63,976 nt of DNA, filler included, from Raillietiella orientalis (GCA_036172245.1; 17 parts of 17 records of this genome joined end to end with filler, not necessarily neighbours in it); one strand, 5' to 3'; shown: positions 15,080-63,976, counted from the whole stretch's first letter. Numbers and translations: made by a program. The notes: generated by a model from the letters alone, not told the origin.

Positions 15080-17000
15080 TGCGCTCCAGGGTGGAAGTGT
15101 TTTCTCGGTGCTCTTCGTGCCAGGAAGTCTCCCCCAGTGCAAGCGTCGTGTGGTTCGGTGGTCGATCAGGCAGCGAAGCCTGACGCGACCACCAGGGATG
15201 GCCAGGGGGCAGCGACAACGCCGCCCCCAGAGGCGATGGAGAGCCAGGGGGCGGCGGCAACGTCGCCCCCAGAGGCGATGGAGGTGGGGGCATCCGCCCC
15301 CACAGAATCGGTCCCCGCTGCAGCGCGGGCGTGGAGCGCCGTTATGTCGGCGCCATCGCCTGCAGCCGCGGCGGAATTGTCGGCCTATGTAGAGGAGGGG
15401 TACAACCCCTCATTGTTCTACAAGGTAGGCAATTTATATTCTTTAGAGAGCGCGCGCGCTTTCTCGAAGGGCATGCGCGCTCTCGATGTGAAAGAGAAGG
15501 AGCTCAGCGCTATGACCATCCGCAGCGGGGGTCTGCACGTTGAGGTCATCTGCAAACATGCAGAGCTGTCCCAACGACTGCTTAAAACCCCCGTTGTGAT
15601 GGGGACGCGCAGGCTCCTCCCCACTACGGCGGACCGCAGCATGGTGGTCCACCTGTTAGGCGTCACCGCGCGAATGCGCAAAGAACAGGTACGCGCCCCT
15701 TTGGAACAGTTCGGAACGGTCCACGCGCAGTGGACGAAAGTAAGTCCTTTCGAGGACTACACGGGGCTGCAACACGGCCTCACTGCTGCGCGCGTGACCG
15801 TTCGGGAGGGCTGCACTCTTCCCCACAAACTGGTGGTCGAAGGCGAAACCGTCGACCTCTGGTATGTGGGGAAGCCGAAATACTGTGGCTTCTGCAATAC
15901 GTCGGGCCACCTCAAAAAGAGGTGTCCCAACGTGCAGTGCCAAGTATGCGGCACAATGGGCCACACGAGGGAGGTGTGCCCAAAAGCAGCAGTGCGGGTG
16001 GTTTCCAAGAGAAACCTTAAAAAACGCGCCCGGCTTCTGCAGAAAAGGCTGGCGGCGAAAGCTGCCGCGAAGGCTGTGCCACCCGCGCCCAAGACCCAGG
16101 CCGCACCCGAGACCCCGGCGACCAACGCCGAAAAAGTTGAGGGAGCCGGCCAGGAGACTGGGTGGCAAGTGGCAACGGACAAAAAATCAAAGGAGAGGAG
16201 GATGGAAAAGAAAATCGCCTACCAACAGAAGAAGAAAGAGCAGGGTAGCGCGATAATTAAAGAGTGCAGCGTCGTTGTCGAACGGGTTCTCGATGTTGCC
16301 GAACGCTGCCGGAAAGAACTCGCCGCTACCGACGACCTCCCCTCTGTTGACACAGTCAACAGCGAGGGGAGCGAGCCGGCGGCGGCGTCCGTCATCGACA
16401 CCACCATCGATGACGTAGCCTTCGCGCGAGCCGCGGAGGAGCTGGCAGCTTCGTTGCAGCCAGAACCCGCCAAGGCTGGCAAGAATTCTGTAAGGCGTCC
16501 GGTCTCCCCTCAGGAGTCCCCCAATTCCGACCCCGAGGTGGAGGCCGGAAGCGCAGCCTCCGTTTCCACGGAACCGCGTAAGAAGGCTGGACGTAAGTCC
16601 AGAAAGCCAAGGAAGCTCGTCTCCCCCGTCGAAGGGGAAGAGATGGCTTTCGCAAGCGAGGGTGCCATGAGCGTGGGAAACTCTCGGGACTCGTCGCCCG
16701 AGAGACTCCCACGCGCGGACACGGAGGGGATGGAGGGGATGGAGGCCGAACAGGTGCCTCAGGTGCCTGAGAAGGCCGAAACCCCCATGGACATCCCGCC
16801 CGCCTCGCAAGAGGAGGGCTCCCCCACACCTTAATCTTCCCAGCAGTAATGCCGGGAATCTCCTCCCGCCGTCGTCTGCGCATCGCCGTTTGGAACGTGA
16901 ACGGCATGACAGACGCCGGCAGGAGACGAGACATGGCCGCCCTTCTGGAGTCCTACGACCTTGCGCTGCTGCAGGAGATCCACGTGATCTCTGCAGAACA
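15080..17000 (+). mobile_element. Family A element, 5' end, full ORF1 and start of ORF2 (ATG 16849)
   Basis: 5' UTR matches 21226-21544 (-); the ORF1/ORF2 junction matches 4328-4880. Confidence 0.93.
15236..16834 (+). CDS. ORF1 nucleic-acid-binding protein, family A (RRM-like region + 2 CCHC)
   Basis: CGFCNTSGHLKKRC and CQVCGTMGHTREVC, Lys-rich then acidic tail. First in-frame ATG used; the true start is uncertain. Confidence 0.85.
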   Translation: MESQGAAATSPPEAMEVGASAPTESVPAAARAWSAVMSAPSPAAAAELSAYVEEGYNPSLFYKVGNLYSLESARAFSKGMRALDVKEKELSAMTIRSGGLHVEVICKHAELSQRLLKTPVVMGTRRLLPTTADRSMVVHLLGVTARMRKEQVRAPLEQFGTVHAQWTKVSPFEDYTGLQHGLTAARVTVREGCTLPHKLVVEGETVDLWYVGKPKYCGFCNTSGHLKKRCPNVQCQVCGTMGHTREVCPKAAVRVVSKRNLKKRARLLQKRLAAKAAAKAVPPAPKTQAAPETPATNAEKVEGAGQETGWQVATDKKSKERRMEKKIAYQQKKKEQGSAIIKECSVVVERVLDVAERCRKELAATDDLPSVDTVNSEGSEPAAASVIDTTIDDVAFARAAEELAASLQPEPAKAGKNSVRRPVSPQESPNSDPEVEAGSAASVSTEPRKKAGRKSRKPRKLVSPVEGEEMAFASEGAMSVGNSRDSSPERLPRADTEGMEGMEAEQVPQVPEKAETPMDIPPASQEEGSPTP

Positions 17001-17100: not shown

Positions 17101-17175
17101 ATGGAGAAAAAAGTCGCGTACCGCCAGAAAAAACATCAGGCAAGCGAGCAAATTAAAAAATGCAGCGTTGTCGTT
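17101..17175 (+). mobile_element. Family A-type ORF1 fragment (MEKKVAYRQKKHQASEQIKKCSVVV), host of a family C insertion
   Basis: Homologous to 16202-16279 and to 47237-47312 (-). Confidence 0.85.
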
Positions 17176-19612
17176 TATTACCCGGTTGCGCCGGGACGTT
17201 TATTATAATATCAACTGAGAACTGTGTTCCCAGGCAAGGGGAACAGAAAATGGGGAGTAGATTTCCCGGAACGCCGTACGGGCACACTGAGAGTTCGGAA
17301 CGGGAGGGGGTGAGACAATAAATGAATAAATTGGTTGGGAGGGCGGGGACACGGGTATACAGTCTAACCGTTCCTATTCTCAGAACCGGCGGTGAATGCC
17401 GCCGATCTCCGTCCTCACTTCTGCTCCTAGGTGTGGCCACCCGGCAGCCATTTGCAGGTTGCAGGCTGCGGTGTCGGGGACCGATGTTGGGACTGCTGGC
17501 ATCGGCAATACGTGGCGGGCCGTGACAATGGCGCGGACGCAGCAGATGATTGCGACGAGCGCTCCAAGAGAAAGTCCGCCACGCGTGTAGAAGGGGCGCA
17601 TCCAATCCAGTGCGGTGTGTCCAGAATGCAGGGGCGCTGAAGACAGCCGCTGCCACAGCTCCTGGAGGGCACCGCACTCAAACAGCAAATGCGGAAGCGA
17701 TTCCACCGCTCCGCATTTGGCACAGTTCGGGGACGCAACTACCCCGGAAATCAGGTGCGCCCGCTAGTTGCAGTACAAACCCCAATGCACCAGCAGAAAA
17801 GCGTCCTGCTTCCACAGAAGGGGAAAGAGAGTCGCGTCCAAACACGCAGAAGGGACCACAAGTTCATCGGTGGGCACCCCGAGGAGCTCACTCCACCGGA
17901 GAAGCCCCTTTGCAAGAATGCGAGGTGTGGCAGCGTCTGCCACTTCGCAAGTCCGCCAGCCGCCCAGCAGTCGGGTTTCGCCTGCGATTTCGAAAGTGAT
18001 CTCCCACCTCGCCGGCAGGTCACTGTCATCTCGCACCATCAGTGCACACAGTGCTTCGGCGAGTGGCGTAGCGGCAAGGCGTGTCCACTGGTCCTGGTCT
18101 TCCAGCACCTCCTCCACTGGACAGTATAGGGAAAGTTTCACGCAACGGAGTTCCCAACGGGACACATCCTGCTGCGTAGCCCAAAACGATAAGGCTTCCT
18201 GCCTCCAGGCGTTGAATTTCGTCGGCCGGCAGGAGATCCAGTCATGCTTTCCCAGAAGCGTGGCGAGCTGCTTCAAAGGGAAGCCGAATCCTCTCTGGGC
18301 GCGCTCCGTGCGCAGATGCAACGAACGTAGTCCGTCGCCACCGGTGCAGCGCCGCAGCAGCAGCCGCGCTGGAGCACACCGGGGAGTATTCCAGAGCTGC
18401 GCACAAAGAGCCAGCATGCGGAACTGCACTAGCAGTCCGATCCGCTCCAGAGTCAGGATGCCCAATCCTGCATCCCGCCGAGGAGCCGCCAAGTCCTTCA
18501 GGCGCATCCTGAACCTCGCCGGTACCCACAGGGCGTTACGCAACAGCCGCTGCGCCCGGAGCTTAGCCGAGTAGGGAGGGGGACAAACAAAAAAGAGGGG
18601 ACGGAGGAGGGGGGCAACGAAAATGTTCCACACGAAGGCCCGTTCCGACAGGAGAAACCTGCCGCCTTGGAACGGGCGCAGAGCAGTCTCGGCCTTGTGA
18701 AGGCAGTCCGACCACGCTTCTGCTGGACAGAAGGTGCCCAAGGGAACGCCGAGGTACTTCAAGCACCTGTCTGTGGGGATCCCCAGGCGGATCCAGTCGG
18801 ACTGCCCCTCCCACGTAGAGCCAACCGGTACAACGGTTGATTTCGTCCTGTTGACGCTAAGGCCGACGAATGAGCTCGAAGAAGTCCTCGAGCCTGGACG
18901 CCGGGGTGGACATGGGCAGCAGCAGGAGAAGGTCGTCAGCATAGGCGGCCACGGCCGGTGTTCCCGGGCAGGAGCTCGGCAGGTTGGCCAGCATCAGCCT
19001 GTACGCCCTCAGCACCAACTCAAAGAAGATGCTGAAGAGCAGGGGGTTTAAGCTGTCTCCCTGCCTGATACCCCGCCGTATGGGAATGCCGTACACGTGG
19101 CGCCCGCTGAAAGAGATACAGCATAACGCGTGGCGCCAGCAGGAGCGCAGGTAGGCGATGAGGTGCGTCGAGAGGCCTAGGCTTCCCAGAAGCTCCAGAA
19201 GGAGGTCCTGGTTTACGCTGTCGAACGCTTTGCAGAGATCGACGGCGACCGCTAGGGCTCCCGGCGTTCCATCGTGCCTTGAACACCGCCGCTTACCTTT
19301 GGCAGCGGCGATTTTGGCTGCCTGGCTCTGCTGCGCCACGCGCTGCTGCAACTCGAACCATGTTCGCGCGAAGAAAAGATTCGCGTCCATGGACCGCCCC
19401 GGAACAGCATACGTCTGCTCCGGACTTACCAAGGACTCTGCGATTCTCCTTAGGCGCGCGTCCCATAGCCTGGAGAACAACTTGACGTCCGAATTCACCA
19501 ATGTGATCGGACGCCAGTTGCTGAGGTGGCGCAAATCACCGCCTTTCGGCAGGAGCCGCACCTTTGCTGAGCGGAAAGAAGAGGGAACATCTCCCGTCTC
19601 ACGTAGCAGCGA
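17176..19612 (-). mobile_element. Family C element, RT through 3' UTR, decayed
   Basis: WRPITLVN, DLCKAFD, GIRQGDSL, YADD, KYLG, CAKC zinc finger; closely similar to 44790-47236. Confidence 0.93.
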
Positions 19613-21125
19613 CGGTCGCGTACGGACGTGGTTTTGCGTCGCTCCGCGGTAGATTGGCTCTTGTGTGTTTTTGTTCTGCTGTGCTTTTGTGCTGCAATGG
19701 GAGCAAAGAAGAACATCAGCTGCAAGAAGGGAACGCCACCTGCTCCTGAGATGGCTGCTTCGGCTGCTAGTAAGGAGCCTCTGTCCTCGCGACGGCGAGG
19801 ACATTCGCCCAGGTCGCTGCCCTCGCGGCTACGATGGGACCTTCGCCCGACAGCCCTGAGCTTCAGGCGTATGTAGCAAATGGCTACACGCCTGCACTCA
19901 GGTATAAGGTAAGTTTCCTTATGCCTGAGCGGGTTGAGCGCGAGTTTGGCCAGGTACTCCAACGGATTGGAGTTCAAAAAGGCCAACTGGAGTCCATCAT
20001 GCCCATGAGTGGATGCAGCTACTGGGAGGTGTCCAGTAAGGACGCTCTCCTTACGCAGCGTTTGCTGCACACGCCGCTCCTCATTCGTGGGCAGGAAATA
20101 CTCCCTGTCACAACGGACCAGTCGTTCGTTGTCCGGCTCAGTGGAGTGTGTAAGGGCCTTTCGGACCTCCAGGTCGTGGAGGCCCTTGAAAAATTCGCTA
20201 CCGTCCACGCGCTTTGGAGGCTGCCAAATCCTGCTGAAGGGTTCGAAGACCACCACAGCGGGCTCGCGCAAGTGCGAGTGACGATGACGGATCGCCGTGC
20301 AATGCCCACGCGACTGCAGTTGGATGGAATGACCGTCCGCCTGTGGTTTGCCGGGCAAACGCGTGTATGCGCGGAATGCGGGCAGGAGGGTCACCGCATT
20401 ACGAAGTGTCCCTCGGCCGCTTGCTGTTACTTCCACCAGCACGGGCACACTAAAGGAACGTGCCCGGAGCTCCTTTTAAAAAACGAAAAGCGCAGGAACG
20501 AATCGCGTTCCGCATTGCGGAATAATCGCCGCGAATCGAGAGAAAGAAACATCAAAGCTCCAAAAAGCGTTGCGAAAACCGCGACCACGCACGTGCAGAA
20601 AACTATTTCTCGCCCCCACAAAGAAGGGGTGAAAAACAAAAAAAAACTTGTCGAGGCAAAGCCTCCGGCTATCGACCCGAAGGAACCTCGCGAAGAATGC
20701 GACCTTTCTACGAGACCTCGCTGCCAATTGTTGAATGCAGGAGACATTGTACCGAAGGTCAAAGAGCCTCGTACTGTCGGCATCACGACCGCGAAGCCTC
20801 GTACCAAGGCCTCGACGAGCGGCGCGGAATGCGGTAGTTCGCCCGATACGGGAAAAACGCTCCCGCGGGCAAAGAACTCCGCGCCGTCTAAAGCTACCGC
20901 GGCCAAGGTGCCCCAGGCACCGAGTGCCGCGAAGAAACAGCCGGCAAACCCGCAGTCCTCGCGCGGACGCAGCGCCTACTGCGGCCAAGGAAGAAACTGC
21001 TAGGACGAGCACAACCGCTACAGCAGTGCCCCCAACGGTCGCAAAGGCAACGCGCGAACCCTCCGACCTGGAAGAGGCAGCGCCTCTCGCGATCGCTAAG
21101 TTTCCCCAAGTCCCACAAGGGGTAG
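19613..21125 (+). mobile_element. Family E element, 5' end and ORF1 (frameshifted; ~19697-21003)
   Basis: 5' motif GGACGTGGTTTT...GCTCC at 19624. ORF1 is homologous to A/B ORF1 (LQAYVANGYTPALRYKV; CAECGQEGHRITKC). Confidence 0.88.

Positions 21126-35569: not shown

Positions 35570-35627
<58 letters not shown>
33795..35627 (+). rRNA. 18S rRNA gene (animal, arthropod-like)
   Basis: Starts TACCTGGTTGATCCTGCCAG, ends GAACCTGCGGAAGGATCATTA, and contains GTGCCAGCAGCCGCGGTAA and TTGTACACACCGCCC; 1833 nt. Confidence 0.99.
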
Positions 35628-35631
<4 letters not shown>

Positions 35632-40789: not shown

Positions 40790-43096
40790 GAGGTCAAGAC
40801 CGCCGTCCCGACGCGGAGCGCACAAGTCCTTTAAGCGGATCGGGCCCTCCCGTTGCCCCAAAGGGCGATAAGAAGAAGGACCTTTGTCCGCTATTAATCC
40901 TCTCTGTGGGGGGACAAACAAAAAGCAGGGGGCGGAGGAGAGGAGCCGCGAACGTGTTGTAAACCGCGGCCCCTTCAGGCAGAAGAAACCTGCCGCCTAG
41001 GAACGGGCCGTTCGCCGTCTCTACTTTTTGGAGGCAGCAGGACCACGCTTCCGCAGGGGAGTAGTCCCCCAACGGCACACCAAGGTACTTAAAGAACCTC
41101 ACCGTGGGGATCCCTAAACGGACCCAGTCCTGCTGCCCTACCCACGCCGCACCAACTGGCATCACGGACGACTTCGTTCTGTCCCCCGTAAGTCCGGCTC
41201 CCCGATGTAGCAAATCGAAGAACTCCTCGACCGCCGCAGCCGGGGTGGACATAGGGAGCAGCAGCAGAAGGTCGTCCGCGTACGCTGAAACGGCCGGCCT
41301 ACCGGTACTGTCGTGCGGCAGGTGCGCCAGAGTTCCTCTGTACGCTCTCAGTACCAATTCAAAGTAGTTACTGAAAAGCAAGGGGCTCAGGCTGTCTCCC
41401 TGTCGTTTCCCACGTCGTACCGGCACACGGTGCACGGTCTGCCCGCTGAAAGAAACGTTGATGAGAGCGTCGCTCCAGCAGGAGCGCAGATAGGCCACTA
41501 ATGAGGCCTGGAAGCCCAAGCGTTCCAAAAGCTCCAGCAGGAGTCTCTGGTCGACGCTGTCGAATGCTTTACGCAAGTCGACAGCGACCGCAAGTGCTTC
41601 CTCCCCCATCCGACCATCCGTCGCATGACTGACGGACTCACCGGAATTCCCGGTGCGCATCAAGCCCCTTTCGTGTTGGAGCTCTAGCCAGGTGGAAGCG
41701 TGGAACAGGTTCGCCTTCATGCTTCGCCCGGGAACAGCATATGTCTGTTCCGGGCTGATGAAGATGCTAGCAACCCGTCCCAGACGCTCTGCGTAAACCT
41801 TAGCAACTTGCCGTCCGCATTCACTATTGTGATGGGACGCCAGTTGTTGATGCTCCTCAGATCTCCTCCCTTAGGGAGGAGCCGCACCTTTGCTGAACGA
41901 AATGAGGCGGGTACGTCACTTGTTTCGCGTATCAGCAAGGTGAGTTGCTGTACCAGAAGGGGAAGCTCAGCCGCGAAAGTTTGGTAAAATTCCGCGGGCA
42001 GGCCGTCCTCCCCTGGAGCCTTCCGCCTCTTGAGCTTTCCGATGGCCGAGAGGATCTCGTCCATCGTGAAAGGCTCGTCGATGGTCTTTCTCTGCTCCTT
42101 TCCGATCGCTGGAGCGCCTTCCGGAAGCAGGAGTCGTGAGACGTTCCTCTCCGGAGGTGCCATGCCATACAGGGAGGAGTAGTAACTCCGCAGCAGGCCG
42201 CGGATTTGGGCAGGTGCCGAGTGCTCCTGGCCCTGATCGTCCAGCAAGCTGGCCGATCCGGACTGCCAGGCTTGCCTCTCGGCTCCCGCTCTGTATTCCG
42301 CCAGCCTGTATTCCTGCTGGCGTAACGACGGTCCTGCAGGTAGGATCGTTTCTTACGGACTTGGGTCCCAAAACCCGTTGGTAGGCGGTGCAGAGGGAAC
42401 TGGTCGCAGAACTCCTGTACCGACCGCTTGAAGCGTTCCCAATCCTGGAGTGTCCGCAGCCTGAAGCTCCGTGTAAACGTGCGATGTTCCGTCGCGTCCG
42501 GGAGCGGCAGCCAGTCCCCTGGGAGACGCCACGCGGACAAGGGGGGGCCATGTCGCGCGGATGGATCTCGAGGACTAGAAGGCGATGGTCGGACAGCTCG
42601 CACGGTAACTTGCAGCGCCTGCCCACGCGAGGGCACAGGTGCTCGTCAAGAAACACGTGGTCAATGCTGTCTTCCATCCCCGGTGCACTGGCCAACAAAT
42701 TACGGTTGTGCACCGCCATGCACACCTCGTTGACCAGGTCACTCGGGATTCTGCCCATCTGGTTTCAGGCGAACGTTGAAATCGCCTGCAACCAGATGGG
42801 CATTCCGCACGCTTGCTTCGGTCAGCCAGTCTCGCCGGAGGGCAAGGAAAAACTCTTTCCTCGCCCTCCTGGTCATCAGGTTTGCGCCGCTTCGTGCGCA
42901 CACGTTCGTGACGATCAGATCGATCGAGTCACACCACCTGAGAGTCAGCTGGCCGACACGACCGTGATCGTCGAATTGCACGGACCGTGCCGCGGCCTAG
43001 ACGGCTGGGTGAAGCAGGTAGGCGACACCGCAACTTTTCGCTCTCACACACCTGTACCATAGCCCCCCTCCGGAGATCCGTTCGATCTCCTGCGCT
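40790..43096 (-). mobile_element. Family A/F-type ORF2 (EN-RT), decayed; host of the family D insertion
   Basis: AGDFN, SDH, WRPITIVN, DLRKAFD, YADD; homology to family A stops at AQEIER (43096). Confidence 0.92.
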
Positions 43097-44414
43097 CCTA
43101 AAGTGCAGTCGTGTTTCCGCGTCTATCCGCGCCAACGATCGGGCAACTTTGTGCCTGCGTTTTCGCTCGCACTTGTGTGTTCCTCTGCAATCTGCCAAGT
43201 AGCATAGTGCAACATGGCCAGTACACAGAATAGTGTGGAGGAGCAAGCCACCGGATGCACTTCAGCTGCACTTGAAGTGGCCGCATCCTCCGTAATGGTT
43301 TCCTCGCCCTCGCCGCCGTTACCTCCCGAAGACCAGGACCCTGCGATGCGGAGTTCCAGGCATATGCGTCATCAGGATACATCGCTGCACTCCGTTATAA
43401 GGTCAGTGGGCCCCTTAACGGGAGAATCGGTCGTGAGCTCAATGATGAACTCGTCCGGATCGGCGTTCGCGAGGAGGAACTCCTTGCCATAATGCCTGCT
43501 GGCAGGATGGAATATACGAAGATTCGGTGCAAGAACGCAGCACCTGTGCAGCGCCTTCTCCGTACGCCGTTAACCATCAATGGCAAGGAAGTCCTACCTA
43601 CCGCGATGGACGACTCTTTTGTCGTTCAATTGTGCGACATCGAACCGGAAATCTCCGACCGCGATGTCGTAAGTGTGCTGGCGATGTTCGCCACCGTGCA
43701 CGCTCTGTGGAGGAGGCCAAATCCTCTAAAGAATTTCCCCTCTGTCCACATTGGACAAGCCTCCGCGCTGATCACCGTCGCGAACAGGCGTGTTGTGCCT
43801 GAGCAGCTGCAGGTGAACGGCACGGTCGTTCACCTGCAGTTCATAGGCCAGAATCGCGCGTGCGAGCAGTGCGGCAAGGATGGGCACCGAATTAAAGAGT
43901 GCCCCTCTCCAAGATGCCGCTATTGCAAAGATTCCGGGCACGAAATCAAACAGTGCCCGGTACTTGCAAGAAAAAGAGCCGCAGCGAAAATTCGTCGGGT
44001 TCAAGAGACCACTGCACGAAAAGCCGCAGCGACAAATAAAAAACGTCGTCCGCAAAAACACGGGAAGAACAACAAGCGAACCGCGGGTGAAAATAAAGCA
44101 TCCCCACCAGCAACGCCCCGAAAAGTAAAAATTAACGGCGGGAAAGCCAATTAAAAAGGGGCGCGAGGGTTTGACGCGTGCCGTGCCTTCCCTCTCTGCC
44201 GAACTCGCAGGCACCTCTCCGAGCCAGGAACCGGGAAATCTCCGTAACACCCTGGAGGGAAAGGTAAGAAAACAGGAAGATCGCAACAGTGCGAAGACTT
44301 CTTGCCCCGTTCCGTTGTCCCTTACGAGTTCCGGACAGCCCCACTGCAAAGGCTACGAAAGCCATAAAAAGCAGCGTCGCGACGAGCAAAAGCGCGCTGC
44401 ATGCAGTCGCCGCA
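43097..44414 (+). mobile_element. Family D element, 5' end and ORF1 (~43214-44154, frameshifted)
   Basis: ORF1 homologous to family E (CEQCGKDGHRIKEC, CRYCKDSGHEIKQC). Confidence 0.87.
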
Positions 44415-44514: not shown

Positions 44515-47236
44515 AGTGCGTCCGCCGTACACGCGTAGTCAAGCGCTACTTCTCCTCGTTGTACGCGGAGGAGCCCACGGAACGCAGTCTCTCCGAGCTG
44601 CTTCTTCCGACGGGTAACCCTGCTATCGACGAAGAGGAACGCGCTAGATTGGAATGGCCCTTCACGGCGGAAGAAGTATCTTCTGTCATAGCAGGCCTGA
44701 AGAGGCGTAAGGCGCGTGGGGAGGTTGGCCTGCCCGCGGAGTTCTTTCAGTGCTTCGCGGCGGAGCTCGTCTTCCTGGTGCTAAGCCTTTCCTCGCTGAT
44801 GCGTGATACGGGTGATGTCCCTGTTTCTTTCCGCTCAGCAAAGGTACGGCTCCTGCCGAAAGGCGGGGATTTGCGGCACCTCAGCAACTGGCGTCCGATC
44901 ACATTGGTGAATTCGGACGTCAAGTTCTTCTCCAGGCTATGGGTCGCACGCCTGGGTAGATTCGCAGAGTGCTTGGCAAGTCCGGAGCAGACGTATGCTG
45001 TTCAGGGGCGGTCCATGGACGCAAATCTCTTCTTCGGGCGAACATGCTTCGAGCTGCAGCAGCGCGTAGCGCAGCAGAACCAGGCAGCCGAAATCGCCGC
45101 TGCCAAAGGTAAGCGGCGGTGTTGAAGGCACGATGGAACGCCGTGAGCCTTAGCGGTCGCCGTCGATCTCTGCAAAGCGTTCGACAGCGTAAACCAGGAC
45201 CTCCTTCTGGATCTTCTGGGACGCCTAGGCCTCCCGACGCACCTCATCGCCTACTTGCGCTCATGCTGGCACCACGCGTTATGCTGTATATCTTTCACCT
45301 GGCGCCACGTGTACGGCATTCCCATACGCAGGGGTATCAGGCAGGGAGACAGCTTAAGCCCCCTGCTCTTCAGCATCTTCTTTGAGTTGGTGCTGAGGGC
45401 GCCCAGGCTAACGCTGGCCAACCTGCCGAGCTCCTGCCCGGGAACACCGGCCGTGGCCGCCTTTGCTGACGACCTTCTCCTGCTACTGCCCATGCCCACC
45501 CCGGCGTCCAGGCTCGAGGACTTCTTCGAGCTCATTCTTCGGGGAGCATGCCTGAGCGTTAACAGGACGAAAGCAACCGTTGTACCGGTTGGCTCTACGT
45601 TGGAGGGGCAGTCCAACTGGATCCGCCTGGGGATCCCCATGGGCAGGTGCTTGAAGTACCTCGGCGTTCCCTTGAGCGCCTTCTGTTCAGCAGAAGCGTG
45701 GTCGCACTGCCTTCACAAGCACGAGACTGCTGTGGGCCCGTTCCAAGGCGGCAGGTTTCTCCTGTCGGAACGGGCCTTCGTGTGGAACATTTTCGTTGCC
45801 CCCCTCCTCCGTCCCCTCTTTTTTGTTTGTCCCCCTCCCTACTCGGCTAAGCGCCTAGTGCAACGCCTGTTGCGTAACGCCCTGTGGGGATCGACGAGGT
45901 CCAGGATACGCCTGAAGAAGTTGGCGGCTCCTCGGCGGGATGCAGCTTCGGGCATCCTGACGCTAGAGCGGATCGGACTGCTAGTGCAGTTCCGCATGCT
46001 GGCACTTTGTGCGCAGCTCTGGACTACTCCCTGGTGTGCTCCAGCGCGGCTGCTGCTGCGGCGCTGCACGGGTGGCGACGGACTACGTTCGTTGCATCTG
46101 CGCACGGTGCGCGCCCAGAGAGGATACGGCTTTCCTTTGCAGCAGCTCGCCACGCTTCTAGGAAAGCATAAGTGGATCTCCTGCCAACCGACGAACTTCA
46201 ACGCCTGGAGGCAGGAAGCCTTATCGTCCTGGGCAGCGCAACAGGATGTGTCCCGTTTGGAACTCCGTTGCGCGAACCTTTTCCCATACTGTCCAGTGAG
46301 GGAGGTGCTTGAAGACCAGGACCAGTGGACACGCCTAGCCGCTACGCCCCTCGCCGAAGCACTGTCTGCCCTGATGGTGCGAGATGACAGTGACCTGCCG
46401 GCGAGGTGGGAAATCACTTGCGAAATCGCAGGCGAAACCCGACTGCTGGGCGTTTGGCGGACTTGCGAAGTGGCAGACGCTGCCACACCTCGCATTCTTG
46501 CAAAGGGGCTTCTCCGGTGGAGTGAGCTCCTCGGGGTGCCCATTGATGAACTTGTGGTGCCTTCTGCGTGTTTATACGCAACTCTCTTCCCCCTTCGGTG
46601 GAAGCAGGACGCTTCTCTGCTGGTGCATTGGGGTTTGCACTGCAACCAGCGGGCGCACCTGGTTTACGGAGGAGTTGCGTCCCCGAACTGTGCTAAATGC
46701 AAAGCGTTGGAAACGCTACCGCATTTCTTGTTTGAGTGCGGTGCCCTCCAGGAGCCGCGGCAGCGGCTGTCTTCAGCGCTCATGCATCCTGGACACACCT
46801 CACTAGATTGGATGCTCCGCTTCTACACGCGTGGTGGACTTTCTCTTGGAGCGGTCGTTGCAATCATCTGCTGCGTCCGCGCCATTGTCAGGGCGCGCCA
46901 CGTATTGCAGATGCGAGCAGTCCCAACATCGGTCCCCGACACCGCAGCCTGCAGCCTGCAAATGGCTGCCGGGTGGCCACATCTTGGGCAGAAGTGAGGA
47001 CGGAGATAGGCGGCCTTCACCGCCAGTACTGAGAATAGGAACGGTTAGACTGTAAACCCCTGTCCCCGCCCTCGCACTTGATCTATTTATTAATGGTGGC
47101 CCCCTCTCCCGTTCCGAACTGTCAGTGTGCCCGGACTGCGTGCCGGGAATTCTACTCCCCATTTTCTGTTCCCCTTGCCTGGGAACACAGTTCCCTGTTG
47201 ATATTATAATAAACGTCCCGGTGCAACCGAATAATA
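44515..47236 (+). mobile_element. Family C element, RT to 3' end, decayed
   Basis: WRPITLVN, DLCKAFD, FADD, KYLG, CAKC...HFLFEC; AATAAA ~47208 and terminal hairpin. Confidence 0.93.
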
Positions 47237-48112
47237 AACGACAACGCTGCATTCCTTAATTTGCTCGCTTGCCTGCTGTTTTTTCTGGTGGTACGAGAGC
47301 TTTTTATCCATCCTCATCTCCTTCTTTGATTTTTTGGCCGTAGGCACCTGCCACCCAGGCTCCTGGCTTGTTCCTTCGACTTGTTCGGCGTTGCTCGCCG
47401 AGGTCTCGGGCGCGGCCTGGGCCTTGGGCGCGGGTGGCACAGCCTTCAAAGCAGCTTTCGCCGCCAGCCTTTTCTGCAGAAGCCGGGCACGTTTTTTAAG
47501 GCTTCTCTTGGAAAACACCCGCACTGCTGCTTTAGGGCACACCTCCCTCTTGTGGCCCATGATTCCGCATACTTGGCACTGCACGTTGGTACACCTCTTT
47601 TTGAGGTGGCCCGACGTATTGCAGAAGCCACAGTATTTCGGCTTCCCCACATACCAGAGGTCGACGGTTTCGCCTTCGACCTTCAGTTTGTGGGGAAGAG
47701 TGCATCCCTATCAAACCGTCAAGCGCGCACACGTGAGGCCGTGTTGCAGCCCCGTGTAGTCCTCGAAAGGACTAACTTTCGTCCACTGCGCGTGGACCGT
47801 TCCGTATTCCTTCAACGCGGCGCGAACCTGTTCCTTGCGCATCCGCGCGGTAACACCTAGCTGGTGGACCACCATGCTGCGGTCCGCCGTAATAGGGAGG
47901 AGCCTGCGCGTCCCCATCACCACGGGGGTTTTAAGCAGTCGTTGTGCCAGCTCTGCTTGTTTGCAGATGACCTCAACGTACTGACCCCCGCTGCGGATGG
48001 TCATAGCGCTCAGCTCCTCCTCTTTAACATCGAGAGCACGCATGCCCTTCGAGAAGGCGCGCGCGCTCTCTAAAGAATATAAATTGCCTACCTTGTAGAA
48101 CAATGAGGGGTA
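47237..48112 (-). mobile_element. Family A-type ORF1 fragment, host of the family C insertion
   Basis: Collinear with 15400-16279 up to KECSVVV. Confidence 0.92.
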
Positions 48113-48212: not shown

Positions 48213-51200
48213 GACGGTGTTGTTTTCATGGTAACCAGGGTCGGACTTACAAGGGGAATATTCTCGTTCGCTCCCATTCATTATGTGGACACCTTTGCAA
48301 CTTTTGGAGATTTGTGTTCAATTAGAAAACAGAAGATTTCACCATTGCACTTTTGCGCCTCTTCACGAAGTATCCTTTTGCAGTGAGTGGCAAATCCCTT
48401 TCATGGAGAGCCGCAAGCCCTTCCAATCTCCGTTTTCAGAGGATGATTAAGAAGAGTTCGAAACTTCATTAGGGCGTGGCACTTTGGACTCTGTCTTCTT
48501 TTCATGGTAACCAGTGTCGGACTTTCAAGGGGAATATTCTCCTTCGCTCCCTTTCATTATGTGGTCCAACTTTGCAGCTTTGGGGGATTTGTATTCAATT
48601 AGAAAACAGAACATTTCACCATTGCACTTTTGCACCTCTTCACGAAGCATCCTTTTGCAGTGAGTGGCAAATACCTTTCATAGAGAGCCGAAAGCCCTTC
48701 CAATCTCTGCTTTCAGAGGATGATTAAGAAGAGTTCGAAATTTCATTAGGCAGTGGCACTTTGGACTCTGTCTTGTTTTCATGGTGACCAGTGTCGGACT
48801 AACAAAGGGAATATTCTCCTTCGCTCTCATTCATTATGCGGTCCAACATTGCAGCTTTTACGGATATTCAAGAAATTCGAAAACAGAAGATTTCACTATT
48901 GCACTTTTGCGCCTCTTCACGAAGCATCCTTTTGCACTGAGTGGCAAATCCCTTTCATGGAGAGCCGCAATCCCTTCCAATCTCTGCTTTCAGAGGATGA
49001 TTAAGAAGAGTTCGAAATTTCATTAGGGCGTGGCACTGTGGACTCTGTCTTGTTTTCATGGTAACCAGTGTCGGACTTACAAAGGGAATATTCTCCTTCG
49101 CTCCCTTTCATTATGTGGTCCAACTTTGCAGCTTTGGGGGATTTGTATTCAATTAGAAAACAGAACATTTCACCATTGCACTTTTGCACCTCTTCACGAA
49201 GCATCCTTTTGCAGTGAGTGGCAAATACCTTTCATAGAGAGCCGAAAGCCCTTCCAATCTCTGCTTTCAGAGGATGATTAAGAAGAGTTCGAAATTTCAT
49301 TAGGGCGTGGCACTGTGGACTCTGTCTTGTTTTCATGGTAACCAGTGTCGGACTTACAAGGGGAATATTCTCGTTCGCTCCCATTCCTTATTTGGTCCAA
49401 CTTTGCAGCTTTTGGGGATTTGTATTCAATTAGAAAACAGAAGATTTCTTCAATGCACTTTTGCACCTTTTCACGAAGCATCCTTTTGCAGTGAGTGGCA
49501 AATACCTTTCATGGAGAGCAGAAAGCCCTTCCAATCTCTGCTTTCAGAGGATGATTAAGAAGAGTTCGAAATTTCATTAGGGCGTGGCACTTTAGACTCT
49601 GTGTTGTTTTCATGGTAACCAGTGTCGGACTTACAAGGGGAATATTCTCGTTCGCTCCCATTCCTTATTTGGTCCAACTTTGCAACTTTTGGAGATTTGT
49701 ATTCAATTAAAAACAGAAGATTTCACCATTGCACTTTTGCGCCTTTTCACGAAGTATCCTTTTGCAGTGAGTGGCAAATCCCTTTCATGGAGAGCCGAAA
49801 GCCCTTCCAATCTCTGCTTTCAGAGGATGATTAAGAAGAGTTCGAAATTTCATTAGGGAGTGGCACTTTAGACTCTGTGTTGTTTTCATGGTAACCAGTG
49901 TCGGACTTACAAGGGGAATATTCTCGTTCGCTCCCATTCATTATGTGATCCAACTTTGCAGCTTTTGGGGATTTGTATTCAATTAGAAAACAGAAGATTT
50001 CACCATTGCACTTTTGCACCTCTTCACGAAGCATCCTTTTGCAGTGAGTGGCAAATCCTTTTCATGGAGAGCCGAAAGCCCTTCCAATCTCTGCTTTCAG
50101 AGGATGATTAAGAAGAGTTCCAAACTTCATTAGGGCGTGGCACTTTGGACTCGGTCTTGTTTTCAAGGTAACCAGTGTCGGACTTTCAAAGGGAATATTC
50201 TCCTTCGCTCCCTTTCATTATGTGGTCCAACTTTGCAGCTTTTGGGGATTTGTATTCAATTAGAAAACAGAAGATTTCACCATTACACTTTTGCACCTCT
50301 TCAGGAAGCATCCTTTTGCAGTGAGTGGCAAATACCTTTCATGGAGAGCCGAAAGCCCTTCCAATCTCTGCTTTCAGAGGATGATTAAGAAGAGTTCGAA
50401 ATTTCATTAGGGAGTGGCACTTTAGACTCTGTGTTGTTTTCATGGTAACCAGTGTCGGACTTACAAGGGGAATATTCTGGTTCGCTCCCATTCATTATGT
50501 GATCCAACTTTGCAGCTTTTGGGGATTTGTATTCAATTAGAAAACAGAAGATTTCACCATTGCACTTTTGCACCTCTTCACGAAGCATCCTTTTGCAGTG
50601 AGTGGCAAATCCTTTTCATGGAGAGCCGAAAGCCCTTCCAATCTCTGCTTTCAGAGGATGATTAAGAAGAGTTCGAAATTTCATTAGGGCGTGGCACATT
50701 GGACTCTGTGTTGTTTTCATGGTAACTAGAGTCGGACTTACAAGGGGAATATTCTCGTTCGCTCCCATTCATTATGTGGTCCAACTTTGCAACTTTTGGA
50801 GATTTGTATTCAATTAGAAAACAGAAGATTTCACCATTGCACTTTTGCACCTCTTCGCGAAGCATCCTGTTGCAGTGAGTGGCAAATACCTTTCATGGAG
50901 AGCCGAAAGCCCTTCCAATTTCTGCTTTCAGAGGATGATTAAGAAGAGTACGAAATTTCATTAGGGCGTGGCACTTTGGACTCTGTGTTGTTTTCATGGT
51001 AACCAGGGTCGGACTTACAAGGGGAATATTCTCGTTCGCTCCCATTCATTATGTGGACCAACTTTGCAACTTTTGGAGATTTGTGTTCAATTAGAAAACA
51101 GAAGATTTCACCATTGCACTTTTGCGCCTCTTCACGAAGTATCCTTTTGCAGTGAGTGGCAAATCCCTTTCATGGAGAGCCGCAAGCCCTTCCAATCTCT

Positions 51201-51788
51201 GCTTTCAGAGGATGATTAAGAAGAGTTCGAAACTTCATTAGGGCGTGGCACTTTGGACTCTGTCTTCTTTTCATGGTAACCAGTGTCGGACTTACAAAGG
51301 GAATATTCTCCTTCGCTCCCTTTCATTATGTGGTCCAACTTTGCAGCTTTGGGGGATTTGTATTCAATTAGAAAACAGAACATTTCACCATTGCACTTTT
51401 GCACCTCTTCACGAAGCATCCTTTTGCAGTGAGTGGCAAATACCTTTCATAGAGAGCCGAAAGCCCTTCCAATCTCTGCTTTCAGAGGATGATTAAGAAG
51501 AGTTCGAAATTTCATTAGTCAGTGGCACTTTGGACTCTGTCTTGTTTTCATGGTGACCAGTGTCGGACTAACAAAGGGAATATTCTCCTTCGCTCTCTAT
51601 TCGTGTTGCGGTTCAACATTTGCAGCTTTTACGGATATTCAAGAATTTCGAAAACAGAAGATTTCACCATTTCACTTTTGCGCCTCTTCACGAAGCATCC
51701 TTTTTTGCACTGATTGGCAAATCCTTTCATGGAGAGCCGCAATCCTTTCCAATCTCTGCTCAGAGGATGATTAAGAGAGTTCGGAAAT
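48213..51788. repeat. Satellite DNA array, ~277 bp monomer, ~13 copies; diverged reverse-complement relative of the 1-4227 satellite
   Basis: CATGGTAACCAGTGTCGGA recurs every ~277 bp and is the reverse complement of TCCGACA(C/G)TGGTT(A/G)CCATG. Confidence 0.97.
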
Positions 51789-51909
51789 NNNNNNNNNNNN
51801 NNNNNNNNNNNNNNNNNNNNNNNNNNNNNNNNTTAATTAATTAANNNNNNNNNNNNNNNNNNNNNNNNNNNNNNNNNNNNNNNNNNNNCGTGGCCCCTCC
51901 CCAAATCCC

Positions 51910-54900
51910 TTGGCGAGCGGACGTGTTTTTCCTGAGCTCCCGAGCGCGTCGACAGGAAGCGGTTTTTTCTTTGTGTGTGTTCGTGTGGAACATCGTTGGT
52001 GTCCGATGGCAGCGATGCCTGAGGACACCACGATGGTGGTAGGTGTGGGGGAGGCTTGCCCACCCCCACAGCCTGCAGAATCAGGGGCGTCCGCCCCGGA
52101 ATCATGCATGGCAACGCCGAGGACGTGGAGCGCCATGGTTTCCGCGCCGAGCGCGGAAACCTTGGCAGAGCAAGCGGCCTACAGGGCCTCCGGATATGAA
52201 CCATCTCTGGTTTATAAGGTAGGACCCCTCTTTGATGGTCCTACCGCCCGGGCTTTTAGTAGGGCACTGAAGGATTTCCCTGTACGCGAGGAGGATCTTG
52301 ACGGCCTCTCCGTACTCAGCGGGGGGCAGCGCGTGGAGGTCGTCTGCAAAGACGTAGCCTTAGCACAGCGCCTCATTAACACCCCGCTGAATGTGGATGG
52401 CCGGAAGATCCTGCCGGTTAGCATGGACCACTCCGTAGTGGTCCATCTAACCGGCATTACGAACCGCATGACGCGATCTGTGGTGAGTAATGCACTAAGT
52501 AAGTACGGTGAGATACACGCGTTGTGGCCAAAGCCTACCATTTTCGAAGGCTTTAATAGCCATTTCGGTGGCCAGGCCGCAGCGCGTGTAACAGTTAATG
52601 AGGGCAGTGGCTTGCCCCACAAACTGGAGGTCGCAAAGGAATCCGTCGACCTCTGGTACGTGGGGAAACCCCGCTATTGTGGCTACTGCGATGCAGTAGG
52701 GCACTTGCGCAAGCGGTGCCCGAATATCGAGTGCCACTTGTGCGGGGTTAAGGGACACGTTCATCGTGTGTGCCCCAAACGCCCCACCCCGGTGCCACCT
52801 GCTGCCAAAAAGGCGCAGGCTAAAAAAGGAAAAAAGGTCGAAAGCCCTTATCGCGATACTGGCCGGCCCCAGCCGCCATCTCCTGTTCCTCCCACCCAGG
52901 CGTCGGAGGAAAAACCCGCTGAAGACGCGGGAGAGGAAGAAGGATGGAAGCTGGTAAAGGCCAGAAAAGAAAAAAAAGTTCCCCCCGTGGAACCCGCGAG
53001 AGCGAAGAGAGAAAAGAGCGGGAAACCGTATAAACCCGGTCCGCGCTCGAAAACTCTTCGCGAGTGCACGGTGGCACTCGAACGGATTGCCGTCCCCGAG
53101 GCTGCCACCCGGGGCGACGAGCCTCCCCTCGCCGTTTCCGCCGCGCCCGAGGTTCGCGACGACGAACCCCCTGTTTGCACAGAGGGTGAACCGCGCGAAG
53201 CGCGCGCCGAAAGCGAGGACGCCGCGTTCGCGCAGGCGGCGGAGGAGCTCGCGGCCACGCTGGCCGAGCGTGAGAACTCCTCACGCAAGGCCGTGCGAAG
53301 GCCGGCTCCGCCGAAGAAGGCCCCCGCAGGTGAGTGCGACCTGGGGGCCGTAAGTGCATCCTCCTCGTCGGAGGCACCCCCCCGGAAGACGGGACGCAAG
53401 TCCCAAAAGCCGAGGAGGCGCCTCCCCTCCACGAGCGAGGAGGAGAAGCAGGAAGCCGACGGCAGCGTGGGAATCCCGGAGGGGGAAATCCCACGCGCGG
53501 AAGTCGTCGAGCAGGCCACCCCCATGGAGGAGGGTGAGCAGGGGGGCGAAGTCCTCCATGCCGGCGCGGACCCTGTACAGCCCACCCGTATGGAGGAGGG
53601 CCAACAGGTAGGCGCGACCCCACCGGAGGATGACCCGCCCGACGCGCCGTTACCCATGGAGGAGGGGGACCAGGTGCACGCAGCGCCTGACCCTCCTCCT
53701 CCACCTAGCGTACCGCCCCAACAGGTGGCGGACGCCGCAGATCCGATTTCCCAGGAATAACACCTGAGCTCGCCTGTCGCCGTCGAATCCGCGTGGCCAG
53801 TTGGAACGTCAACGGGCTGAGCGACGACGGCAACAGACGAGATACGGCCGACACCCTGCGTGAGTTCGACCTGGCGCTGCTGCAGGAGATCCACGTGATC
53901 ACCTCGGCAGACGTCCAGGAGATCGAGACGATCGCGGGGGGTCGACTGTATTGGCGATGCGGCGCCCGCAACACCTGTGGGGTCGCGTTTTTCGTGAAGC
54001 CGGCCATCGACGCTGCCGTGAAGGGCGTACCCTTCGATGACGACGGTCGGGTCGGTCAGCTGATTCTCAGCTGGTCCGACTTGATCGAATTGATCGTCAC
54101 GAACGTGTACGCCTCAAGCGGGAAAGGGGGATACAGCGACCGTACCAGGTTGCTGGAAACCCTGAAGCGCGACTGGCTGGCCGATACGAACGTGCGGAAG
54201 GCACACCTGATAGCTGGGGACTTTAATCTCCGTCTGCTGTCAGGTGAGCCCGAAGAACAAGAACGCACGGCCAACGAGTTGTGCGCTGCCATGCGCACGC
54301 GCAACTTGTTGGCGGACGCGGAGGGAATGGACCGCAGCATCGACCACTTCTTCCTGGATGTCGACCTGTGCTCGCGGGTCGGCAAACTGGGAAAAGTTGC
54401 GTCGACGCTGTCAGACCATTCCAGGTTAATCGCCGAGGTATGCCCGCGCGATAAAGGACCCCCGGCCAGGGCGTGGCGGTTGCCTGGGGATTGGACGCGG
54501 CTCTCAGGTGCGAAGGAACACCTTCGCGAATTCCTGAGAGGCGTCACCCTCCGCAGTCTCAAAGATTGGGACCTCTTCAAGGCCCCGGTCCGCGAGTTCT
54601 GCGAGGAGTTCCCCCTGCACCGCCTGCTCCCCGGATTTGGGGAGGGGGCTCGGAACTATAGGGCCTATTTACAGGCCCGCCGGTACGAGAGGACCCCCAA
54701 TGTCCGTCGCCTGGCCGAATATCGAGCCGGGCCCGAGCGCCAAGCCTGGCAATCCGGGTCGGCCAGCTTGCTGGACGACCAGGGCCGGGAGCGATCGGCC
54801 CCACCCGCGATCAGGCACCTCGTGCGGCAGTATTATTCCTCCCTCTACGCTAGGGCACCCCCAGAGCGGGACGCCTCGCGGCTCCTGCTTCCGGACGGAG

Positions 54901-60453: not shown

Positions 60454-62644
60454 TCTCCTCGAGAGCGGACGTGTTTTTCCGGCGCTCCGCGAACGAGCAG
60501 CGGAAAGCGGTTTTTTTTTGTTCAGTGTGTGCTTCTTCACATCGTTGGTGTCCGATGGCATCGCTGCCAGAGGACACCACGATGGAGGTAGGCGTGAGGG
60601 AGGCTAGCCCCCCCCCACGACCTACAGAACCAGGTGCATCCGCCCCGGAATCGCCCTCGCCGCCCAAGGCGAGGAGCTGGAGCGCCATGGTGGCCGCGCT
60701 GAGCGCGAAAACCATGGCAGAGATGGCGGCCTACCGGGCAGCTGGGTACAAGCCCAGCTTGGTGTACCAGGTAGGCAATCTCTTTGACGGGCGAACTGCA
60801 CGCGCTTTCTCGAGGGCGCTGCAGAACGCCAACGTATTAGAAAAGGATCTTGACGGTCTATCAGTGCTCAGCGGAGGTCAGCGCGTCGAGGTTGTCTGCA
60901 AGGACATCACCTCGGCGCAAAGCTTGATTACCACCCCGCTGAACGTGGACGGACGCAAGATCCTACCAGTGACGATGGACCGCTCCGTAGTGGTCCATCT
61001 GACAGGGATCACCAGCCGCATGACGCGGTCTGCGGTTGGTGATCAGTTAAGAAAATATGGCAATGTTCACGCGCTATGGCCAAAGGCCACAATCTTCGAC
61101 GGCTACGATAGCCTGTTCGGAGGGCAGGCCGCCGCGCGCGTGACGGTGAAGGAGAGTGGGCTTCCCCACAAACTAGAGGTCAATGACGAAGTCGTAGACC
61201 TCTAGTACGTGGGGAAACCCCGCTTTTGTGGCTACTGCAATGCAGTAGGACACTTGCGCAAGCGGTTCCCGAACATTGTGTGCCACTTATGCGGGGAGAA
61301 GGGCCACGTGCGCCGCGTATGCCCTAAACGCCCCACTCCGGTGCCGCCTGCTGCAAAGAAAGCACAGGCAAAACGCGGAAAAATGGTCGAAAGACCAAAA
61401 AGAGATACTGGCCGGCAGCAGCCGCTAGCCCCTGTTCCTCCCACACAGGCGTCGGAAGAAAAACCTTCCGAAGACGCGGGAGTCCAAGACGGTTGGCAGC
61501 TGGTCAAGGCCAGGAAGGAGAAAAAGGTGCCCCCCGCGGAACCCGCGAAAGCGGTAAAAAAGACAGCCGGCAAAGGCGAAAAAACCTGGGCCGCGCTGCA
61601 AGACCATACGGGAATGTACGGTGACACTGGAGCGCATAGCCGTTCCCGAGACTGCCACCCAGGACGACGAGCCTTCCCACGCCGTTTCCGCCGCGCCCGA
61701 GGTTCGCGACGACGAACCCTCTGTTTGCACAGAGGGTGAGCCGCGCGAAGCGCGCGCCGAAAGCGAGGACGCCGCGTTCGCGCAGGCGGCGGAGGAGCTC
61801 GCGATCACGCTGGCCGAGCGTGAGAACCCCTCACGCAAGGCCGTGCGAAGGCCGGCTCCGCCGAAGAAGGCCCCCGCAGGTGAGTGCGACCTGGGGGCCG
61901 GAAGTGCATCCTCCTCGTCGGAGGCACCCCCCCGGAAGACGGGACGCAAGTCCCAAAAGCCGAGGAGGCGCCTCCCCTCCACGAGCGAGGAGGAGAAGCA
62001 GGAAGCCGACGGCAGCGTGGGAATCCCGGAGGGGGAAATCCCACGCGCGGAAGTCGCCGAGCAGGCCACCCCCATGGAGGAGGGTGAGCAGGGGGGCGAA
62101 GTCCTCCTTGCCGGAGCAGCCCCTGTACAGCCCACCCGTATGGAGGAGGGCCAACAGGTAGGCGCGACCCCAACGGAGGGTGACCCGCTCGACGCGCCGT
62201 CACCGATGGAGCAGGGGGACCAGGAGCTCGAGGCACCTGTCCCTCCTGCCAAAACTAGCGTCCCGCCCCAACAGGTGGCGGACGCCGCAGAGCCGATTTC
62301 CCAGGAAGAACACCTGGGCTCGCCTGTCGCCGTCGAATCCGCGTGGCCAGTTGGAACGTCAACGGGCTGCGCGACGACGGCAACAGACGAGATACGGCCG
62401 ACACCCTGCGTGAGTTCGACCTGGCTCTGCTGCAGGAGATCCACGTGATCACCTCGGCAGACGTCCAGAAGATCGGGACGATCGCGGGGGGTCGACTGTA
62501 TTGGCGATGCGGCGCCTGCAACACCTGTGGGGTCGCGTTTTTCGTGAAGCCGGCCATCGACGCTGCCGTGAAGGGCGTACGCTTCGATGACGACGGTCGG
62601 GTCGGTCAGCTGATTCTCAGCTGGTCCGACTCGATCGAATTGAN
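60454..62644 (+). mobile_element. Family B element, 5' end, decayed ORF1 and start of ORF2
   Basis: Collinear with 51910-54090; TAG at 61203, plus a frameshift. Confidence 0.93.
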
Positions 62645-62743: not shown

Positions 62744-63976
62744 TCGGTGTCCAATGGCCACGACGCCAGAGGACACCGCGATGGAGGTGGGAGTGGGGGA
62801 GGCTAGTTCGCCCCCACAGCCTACTGGAGCAGGGGTAGCCGACCCGGATTCATCCCCGGCCACGCCGAGGACATGGAGCGCCTTGGTGGCCGCGCCCAGC
62901 GCGGATGCCATGGCGGAGATGGCCGCACACAAGGCCTCCGGGTACAAACCATCGCTTGTGTACCAGGTAGGCAACTTGTTCGACGGCCGGACAGCGCGAG
63001 CCTTCAGCAAAGCGTTGAAGGACGCAAATGTTACAGAGAAGGATCTGGACGGCCTCTCCGTCCTCAGCGGCGGGCAGCGGGTCGAGGTGGTCTGCAAAGA
63101 TGTCACCTTGGCTCACTGTCTAATCCAAGCGCCGCTGAACGTAGACGGCCGCAGGATCCTGCCAGTATCAATGGACCGCTCCGTGGTGGTCCACATGACT
63201 GGCATCACCAGCCAAATGACGCGGTCAGCGGTTGGTGAGGAATTACGGAAGTACGGTGAGGTGCACGCACTGTGGCCGAAACCCTCCATTTTCGACGGCT
63301 TCGATAGCCTTTTTGGTGGGCAGGCTGCAGCGTGGGTCACCGTAAGGGAGAATTGTGGGCTTCCCCACAAAACTACAGGTGGCGCAAGAAAACGTGGACC
63401 TGTGGTATGTAGGGAAGCTTCGGTATTGCTGGCATTGTGAAACCGTGGGACACCTACGTAAAAGGTGTCCCAATATACAATGCCATTTGTGCGGGGAGCG
63501 AAGCCACGTTCAGCGCGTGTGCCCCAAACGCCCCACCCCGGTTCCACCTGCCGCGAAAAAAGCGCAGGGGAAACGTGCTTCAAAGGTCTCCAGACCTTAA
63601 GAAGAAAAGGGCCAGCACAAGCTACCAACACCTCAACCTTCGGAGCGCAAGCCGGAGGATATACCTTCTGAAACGGTGGAAGGCGAAGAGGGATGGCAGC
63701 TTGTAGAAACCAGAAAGCCGAGGAAACTCCCACCCGCGGAGAGCAAAGAGCGCAAGACGGCCGGAAGCCGAAAAAACCCGGTCCGCGTTCGGAAACTTTG
63801 CGCGAGTGCATGGTGGCACTGGAACGAATCGTCGTTCCCGAGATTGCCACCCGGAGCGTCGATCCTCCCCTTGCCGTTTCCGGTGCGCCGGAGGCTCGCG
63901 ACGGCGAACCCTCTGTTTACACAGAGGGTGAGCCGCGCGATATAGCGGCGGTCGAAGCCGCGGACGCCGCGTTCGC
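62744..63976 (+). mobile_element. Family B-type ORF1 (frameshifted), truncated by the window end
   Basis: MATTPEDTAMEVG...; CWHCETVGHLRKRC and CHLCGERSHVQRVC. Confidence 0.9.

Follow-up and report, generated by a model that had tools for sequence, protein, structure and literature searches.

Composition of the window

The window analyzed here (the whole stretch of 63,976 nucleotides) is not one locus but a series of 17 unrelated small contigs of 3.5-4.2 kb each (the last cut at 1.2 kb) with N-linker-N spacers between them. Domain searches identified most of these contigs as pieces of related non-LTR retrotransposons encoding an AP endonuclease, a reverse transcriptase (RT) and a zinc-binding C-terminus; they are nested leftovers and form a biased sample. 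The families are designated here by letters, and the features of families A, B and C and of elements D and E are listed in Table 1. Family F, a more distant LINE family of lower GC content (8581-12053 and 37112-39096), is the sister of A, B and C in the RT tree.

Also present in the window are two satellites in opposite orientation (39-4227 and 48220-51788) whose units of 278 and 277 bp are approximately 72% alike, a eukaryotic 18S rRNA gene with a long GC-rich spacer behind it (33795-36920), and an inverted repeat of 224 bp (30675-30898 and 32885-33100; 92% identical, 2 kb apart) which possibly represents the ends of a DNA transposon. The source of the window is a eukaryote; the Atlas clusters nearest to the family A ORF1 are mainly arthropod, and we take the 18S gene to be arthropod-like.

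Table 1. Coordinates of the family C copies, their hosts, neighboring elements and motif sites, counted from the first nucleotide of the window.
Feature	Position	Strand	Remarks
Family A ORF1, intact, 532 aa from chosen Met	15236..16834	+	two RRM-type folds, CCHC knuckles, long low-confidence tail (modelled)
Empty site KECSVVV in intact A	16259..16279	+	four third-codon differences from hit form, all synonymous
C2 host, A ORF1, 75 bp, ending K-K-C-S-V-V-V (17155-17175)	17101..17175	+	contig end
C2, RT to 3′ end	17175..19612	-	8-bp deletion and one stop; 5′ side cut by element D
Element D, 5′ UTR and ORF1	19613..21125	+	antisense in C2 ORF2; not at A ORF1 site; without motif
Element E, 5′ UTR and ORF1	43097..44414	+	antisense inside A-type endonuclease; not at A ORF1 site; without motif
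C1, 3′ part of ORF2, with RT and C-terminal region	44515..46997	+	PF00078, E 4.8e-14
C1 3′ UTR	46998..47237	+	hypervariable patch 47066-47105; AATAAA 47208-47213; decayed hairpin near 47219-47229
C1 target codons K-E-C-S-V-V-V of host A ORF1	47237..47257	-	break after last Val codon
C1 host, 5′ part of family A ORF1	47237..48112	-	89.6% identical to intact A; two stops
LRECTVALERI, B ORF1 copy 1	53056..53088	+	uninterrupted
IRECTVTLERI, B ORF1 copy 2	61606..61638	+	uninterrupted
LRECMVALERI, B ORF1 copy 3	63798..63830	+	uninterrupted

Family C copies and the structure of their 3′ ends

Two copies of family C were found on separate contigs, C1 at 44515-48112 and C2 at 17101-21125, and these are 91.7% identical over 2520 columns, flank included. 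The contig of C1 opens inside ORF2, and the window contains neither the C endonuclease or ORF1 nor a C 5′ junction or target duplication; a search for a target duplication inside the C1 host (47237..48112) found none. The ORF2 of C1 is decayed, with two in-frame stops near 45123-45146 and a change of YADD to FADD.

In both copies the 3′ end is laid out as AATAAACG, a short hairpin and approximately 5 A-rich bases, followed by the antisense of AAG GAA (or AAA AAA) TGC AGC GTT GTC GTT. The C1 terminus is a short A-rich end without a poly(A) tail, and the C2 hairpin is intact (CCCGG/CCGGG). The C 3′ end is built like the six other ends with which it was aligned, the distance from AATAAA to the end being about 25 bases in all eight ends (families A, A2, B and C), and it is the true terminus of the element. 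Shuffling indicated a strong 3′ hairpin in two of the six ends folded and a weak one in C (z -0.6 and -1.0). Pairing in this hairpin is kept through a double change, CCCGG/CCGGG versus CTCGG/CCGAG (59595-59625 versus 8497-8527, and others), as is expected of a recognized RNA end. It was also observed that in C and B the tail and target together recreate an AACG(Y)C word seen after AATAAA about 25 bases upstream (47208-47241, 17171-17204, 59031-59070 and 8497-8536); the word lies 3 bases into the target of A and does not occur in A2, and may be due to chance or hint at RNA-target pairing.

The original prediction had proposed the ORF1 of element D or E as a possible 5′ end of C, for which we obtained no support. 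Neither element joins at the A ORF1 site, and their junctions (D within C ORF2, E within an A-type endonuclease) rule both out as the C 5′ end unless C has a second target. The contig 17101-21125 is a three-tier nest in which D lies antisense in C ORF2 (at approximately 19612) and C antisense in A ORF1. Two other contigs stop at the EIERISGG endonuclease codons (25194 and 25295), where the 5′ end of E joins a third copy (43096), a situation to be expected where an assembly branches at a common site of insertion.

Junctions of family C with family A ORF1

Both of the C 3′ ends in the window abut family A ORF1 in antisense, at 47236-47237 (+) and 17175-17176 (-), and in both the break lies directly after the codons of K-(E/K)-C-S-V-V-V. 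Positions 47236 (+) and 17176 (-) are the identical base when aligned, bearing out for both ends the earlier claim that two diverged C termini join the same host position in antisense. Because the tail and the AAC of the target have A residues in common, the break in C1 can be placed only to within 1-3 bases (47236-47239). Two occurrences of the C 3′ UTR were found in the window, each at an A ORF1 junction, and the two exact occurrences of the flanking 14-mer are likewise both at C junctions. Allowing up to three mismatches gave 9 matches in the window against 5.5 expected, indicating that near-matches are not enriched, and those located elsewhere in the window had no C occupying them.

With about five families of 5.5 kb, the probability that two random landings, if independent, share their base and strand is of the order of 1 in 50,000 (hand arithmetic), and the question is therefore the independence of the two junctions rather than chance. 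Reads of one public run (share 0.08 of C1 plus host), at 80% likeness, cover both C-like and A-like parts; of 107 loose ends and 131 pieces, 6 and 8 respectively were listed and none of these lay at the C-A junction, which speaks neither for nor against it.

The target in family A ORF1 and its conservation

Residues 55-215 of the A ORF1 gave model folds which match RRMs with middling Z scores of 7-8, and the protein matched ZCCHC3-like clusters of the Atlas (0.91-0.92). A zf-CCHC domain scored below cut-off in A ORF1 and above cut-off in the relative P0098. Type I ORF1 proteins are described as having an RRM upstream of CCHC knuckles (PMC4120745), and the A ORF1 as modelled has this arrangement of RRM domains and then CCHC knuckles. 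The target motif is placed in the low-confidence tail behind the two RRM-type folds and knuckles, where residues 339-358 have a pLDDT below 50, although the model, built on a shallow alignment of 8 rows, makes them helical.

The presence of LRECTVALERI in B ORF1, as claimed earlier, was confirmed, and two further B copies carry the motif. A profile search of metagenome proteins returned five close ORF1 relatives, four of them long enough to include the tail, and the motif is kept in each of these four. These relatives (P0097, P0098, P0099, P0101 and P0107) lie on metagenome contigs of 1-2 kb, the lineage thus being present in other samples. All 10 close ORF1 rows (six from the window and four from metagenomes) fit [ILV][KRT][EQNK][CA]xVx[LV], a pattern written after the motif had been seen, nine of them with Cys. 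The eight rows uncut by C run on into ER[IV], and only V346 and one other column are invariant in the ORF1 alignment of 8 rows. The motif is absent from D and E ORF1, and among 150 ORF1-like proteins CxVx[LVIM] was found in 3 of 119 scorable tails compared with 3.7 expected, indicating that it is not general among distant ORF1s. A query of 26 residues containing the motif gave no matches among solved structures.

At the DNA level, a hand count of the 15 bases before the break gave 12 matches in intact A and 8, 6 and 8 in the three uninterrupted B copies, and all four of these sites are empty. As four uninterrupted sites carry the motif, the peptide alone does not draw insertions, and with only 6-8 of 15 bases matching, B is not established as a target of C. 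The target island is conserved as peptide and not as DNA; the prediction of a conserved coding island therefore stood for the peptide, which is kept in A, B and four metagenome relatives, but not for the DNA, which matches at only 6-12 of 15 bases in the empty sites. A broader proposal, that the targets are conserved DNA islands, was rejected on three ORF2 sites where A-versus-B identity over the 15 bases before the break was 0.60 compared with a mean of 0.66.

Compared with intact A, the last 180 bp of the C1 host before the site are 18.9% diverged and the upstream part 7.5%, with synonymous shares of 0.47 and 0.49. This stretch and the third-position changes fit a silent escape of A from C and equally a mosaic ORF1, and with one intact A available they are taken as a lead only. 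Mosaicism was observed in B copies 1 and 2 (51889-54093 versus 60433-62643), which are 23.5% different before approximately 53115 and 4.2% after it (chi2 159). The swapped 5′ module of these two copies ends just beyond the CxVxL motif, and B copy 3 is also nearer to both downstream.

Resemblance of the ORF1 motif to an HP1 box

The peptide CxVx[LV]ER of A and B ORF1 resembles an HP1 box and is put forward as a candidate only. An HP1 box is expected to bind the chromoshadow dimer and to lose this binding when its Val is replaced by Glu. Published descriptions include the binding of HP1a by dATRX through CxVxL (PMC2324200), the conservation of such boxes within disordered regions (HACs; PMC12526061) and the KAP1 box with residues P486, V488, L490, E491 and R492 (PMC12126490). 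Like the boxes described there, the ORF1 motif is an alternating hydrophobic pentamer with a central Val, located in what may be a disordered tail, this pentamer being conserved in 10 of 10 rows, and L-E-R of the B forms matches L490-E491-R492 of KAP1. The motif differs in its basic residues, with 1-2 K/R in the 9-mer from -4 to +4 in all 10 rows (two of which are cut short by C) against 3-6 in the Drosophila HAC consensus. It also differs in having acidic residues at -3 and +3 in most ORF1 rows, and in family A by the form CxVxV. Our search of the open literature, which did not extend to subscription papers, listed no LINE whose ORF1 protein carries an HP1 box.

Site specificity in the sister families

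The RT tree groups C with A and B (support 1.0) and places A, B, C and F on their own branch (0.994) on the side of plant L1 and fish/turtle hits, not within the latter; this tree was midpoint rooted and included all 96 database hits without named Tx1 references. Over the aligned part the ORF2 DNA of C and A is 57-59% identical, and database searches with ORF2 returned only matches of 21-43% identity. Searches for the shared 3′-end pattern gave a single match in metagenomes, which fell by chance within a bacterial gene, and none in viral contigs, and protein-seeded scans of viral and prokaryote contigs found no relatives. The endonuclease domain PF03372 was detected in the sisters A (E 3.7e-06) and B (E 6.8e-12).

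All three A ends in the window lie antisense at the KAFD codons of RT, in both B-type and A-type hosts, with about 14 bases duplicated and matching 5′ junctions, and both B ends lie at GFG codons with about 11 bases duplicated and matching 5′ junctions. A2, D and E are each found at another site. Site specificity is thus a habit of the A/B/C clade, which raises the prior for C. Close relatives can have different targets, as A2, which is approximately 82% identical to A, ends antisense elsewhere in a B-type ORF2 (28876-29229). Three A-type copies (at approximately 6415-6435, 25722-26882 (+) and 40794-41870 (-)) have D-L-R-K-(G/A)-F-D where two hosts hit by A have H-K-A-F-D, a possible case of self-avoidance.

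Independence of the two junctions

The case that would have undone the prediction was that both junctions are copies of one ancestral event, other C termini being random. Between C1 and C2 there are 163 coding differences of which 58.5 are synonymous, compared with an expectation of 43.8-45.3 (p 0.0035-0.0125) across four neutral nulls in which the base and CpG spectrum was preserved. Adjacent mismatches numbered 25 against 16 under the null (p 0.014), and a patch of the 3′ UTR holds 13 differences within 40 bases (p 0.004). An A-versus-A pair of ORF2 had a similar synonymous share (0.39), and the same test on the two B ends was not significant (p 0.155). The differences between C1 and C2 are mostly decay, the synonymous excess amounting to about 14 changes, and this excess indicates that their divergence arose in part during activity, under selection on ORF2. 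Plain duplication of a single dead C insertion is accordingly disfavored (p 0.004-0.013) and unlikely, which answers the refuting case in its simplest form but not in the form of one old insertion spread with its flank.

In that second form a single old C insertion in one A copy would have been multiplied together with its flank, by 3′ transduction from an active master, by mobilization of an A-C composite, or by DNA duplication with gene conversion from other C copies, and C would have no special target. Both hosts belong to one A subtype with shared derived letters relative to intact A; the two flanks differ at 8 of 75 positions and are closer to each other than to intact A (73-79% identity there). 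Divergence is similar in flank (10.7%) and element (8.3%), and an active master or gene conversion would also yield a synonymous excess. Of the 8 flank differences 2 are synonymous (p 0.57), so that they appear neutral, as would likewise be expected with one shared ancestor. At C2 a carried flank is feasible, as only 75 bp are present before the contig end. At C1, in contrast, all 873 bp of flank up to the contig end lack an AATAAA on the plus strand and a second tail, both of which a carried flank would need, and the sister A hits two host types at one base, so that site specificity exists in the clade. On balance we consider that one insertion multiplied with its flank is unlikely to account for the two junctions.

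Discussion

We consider it likely that family C is a site-specific non-LTR retrotransposon of L1/Tx1 type which inserts antisense into A ORF1, as one member of a web whose families target one another. Of this reading, the position and orientation of both junctions, the end of the element and a signal of selection between C1 and C2 are established. The junctions in A ORF1 are a real feature and probably represent true site-specific targeting of the ORF1 of a sister LINE. The earlier claim that C targets an ORF1 motif of A was upheld as to a fixed antisense site, probably hit more than once, in a conserved peptide, but specificity proper was not secured with n = 2 and no 5′ junction or target duplication.

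Following the scheme of target-primed reverse transcription, the putative AP-type endonuclease of C would recognize a short stretch of DNA around TGC AGC GTT GTC GTT and make a nick in the coding strand of A behind the third Val codon. Through its TT, the 3′ end released by the nick (..GTCGTT) would then pair with the first A residues behind the C 3′ hairpin and prime cDNA synthesis, and priming of this kind would leave a tail of few A residues and C lying backwards. A second nick is predicted to duplicate about 11-16 bases, as compared with approximately 14 in sister A and 11 in sister B. Purifying selection on the ORF1 peptide (CxVx[LV]ER, HP1-box-like) would slow erosion of the site and keep it usable, and as third positions are free to drift only some A subfamilies would be expected to be good targets. 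Each landing of C would break one A copy and spare host genes, with C being one node in a web in which every sister family would have its own site.

Two other explanations were weighed against site-specific insertion by C. It is very improbable that C has merely a loose preference, from a short motif together with tethering to LINE-rich heterochromatin, and that the A ORF1 site is one hot spot among many; crocodilian Tx1 families are described as preferring rather than strictly targeting transposons (PMC4494074), and the nested contigs are a biased sample, but the two C ends coincide to the base and 14-mer near-matches elsewhere in the window are unoccupied. That the motif region is a hot spot for recombination or template switching, with the C-A junctions as rearrangement products, is scarcely credible, for although B copies 1 and 2 switch about 15-55 bases beyond the position equivalent to the C break and the end of the C1 host is the more diverged from intact A, both junctions lie exactly at the natural 3′ end of C, about 25 bases past AATAAA, in opposite orientation and with 1-3 bases shared, and recombination has no reason to choose the terminus of an element.

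AP endonucleases with sequence specificity aimed at other transposons are known (PMC1950540, PMC4494074), those of Tx1L and R1Bm being sequence specific (PMC1950540). In one published treatment a family is assigned to a target type when more than 20% of its flanks fall in that type (PMC4494074); both C 3′ flanks do so, with n = 2 and independence probable. Family C resembles Tx1L of Xenopus laevis and the crocodilian Tx1-Mar, Tx1-8_Crp, Tx1-4_AMi and Tx1-9_AMi as a putative AP-endonuclease LINE which probably targets another mobile element, and some copies of Tx1-Mar are opposite in direction to the host element, the specificity of Tx1 families being ascribed to the endonuclease (PMC4494074, PMC1950540). 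The targets described for those families belong to DNA transposons (piggyBac, Mariner, Harbinger) or to LTR elements, whereas the probable target of C is a set of ORF1 codons in a sister LINE. In our midpoint-rooted RT tree, moreover, C does not nest among the vertebrate Tx1-like hits.

The Zepp and ZeppL elements of green algae form clusters of one family each, with a single cluster at the centromere of each chromosome, and insert into their own copies. The host of C, in contrast, is another family (A, with 57-59% ORF2 DNA identity) which is entered at one base and in antisense, and self-insertion was not what we found. What is common to both is the occurrence of L1-type LINEs in dense clusters (bioRxiv 10.1101/2022.06.16.496473). 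With R1Bm, Keno, Kibi and Koshi family C would share a fixed site in multicopy sequence which spares host genes, but those elements are described as landing in microsatellites or in RNA genes of the host, which the host itself keeps constant (PMC4640811, PMC4494074, PMC1950540). The target of C would differ in being kept by selection on the protein of a rival element and in being free to drift at third positions. LINEs aimed at other transposons are already known, but searches of the open literature, which took in neither Repbase nor subscription papers, listed no LINE whose fixed site lies within the ORF1 codons of a sister LINE.

A further reading, which we regard as doubtful, joins a two-step homing to an arms race. 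Here A and B ORF1 would dock on HP1 via CxVx[LV]ER, the C endonuclease would cut the codons of that box, and A would escape synonymously. HP1 docking may bring A/B ORF1 to LINE-filled heterochromatin, and the rival may then be unable to change the site at the protein level. Offered in its favor are the four third positions, within six codons, that distinguish intact A from the hit form, together with the divergence of the 180 bp preceding the site, which is 2.5 times that of the rest at the same synonymous share.

Close families with distinct targets (the ORF1 motif, KAFD and GFG) offer a natural series for studying change in AP endonuclease specificity. A target held in place by constraint on the protein of a rival leads to a testable prediction, that of synonymous escape. 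If true, the arms-race reading would amount to a host-parasite contest between two retrotransposons, carried out in codon choice.
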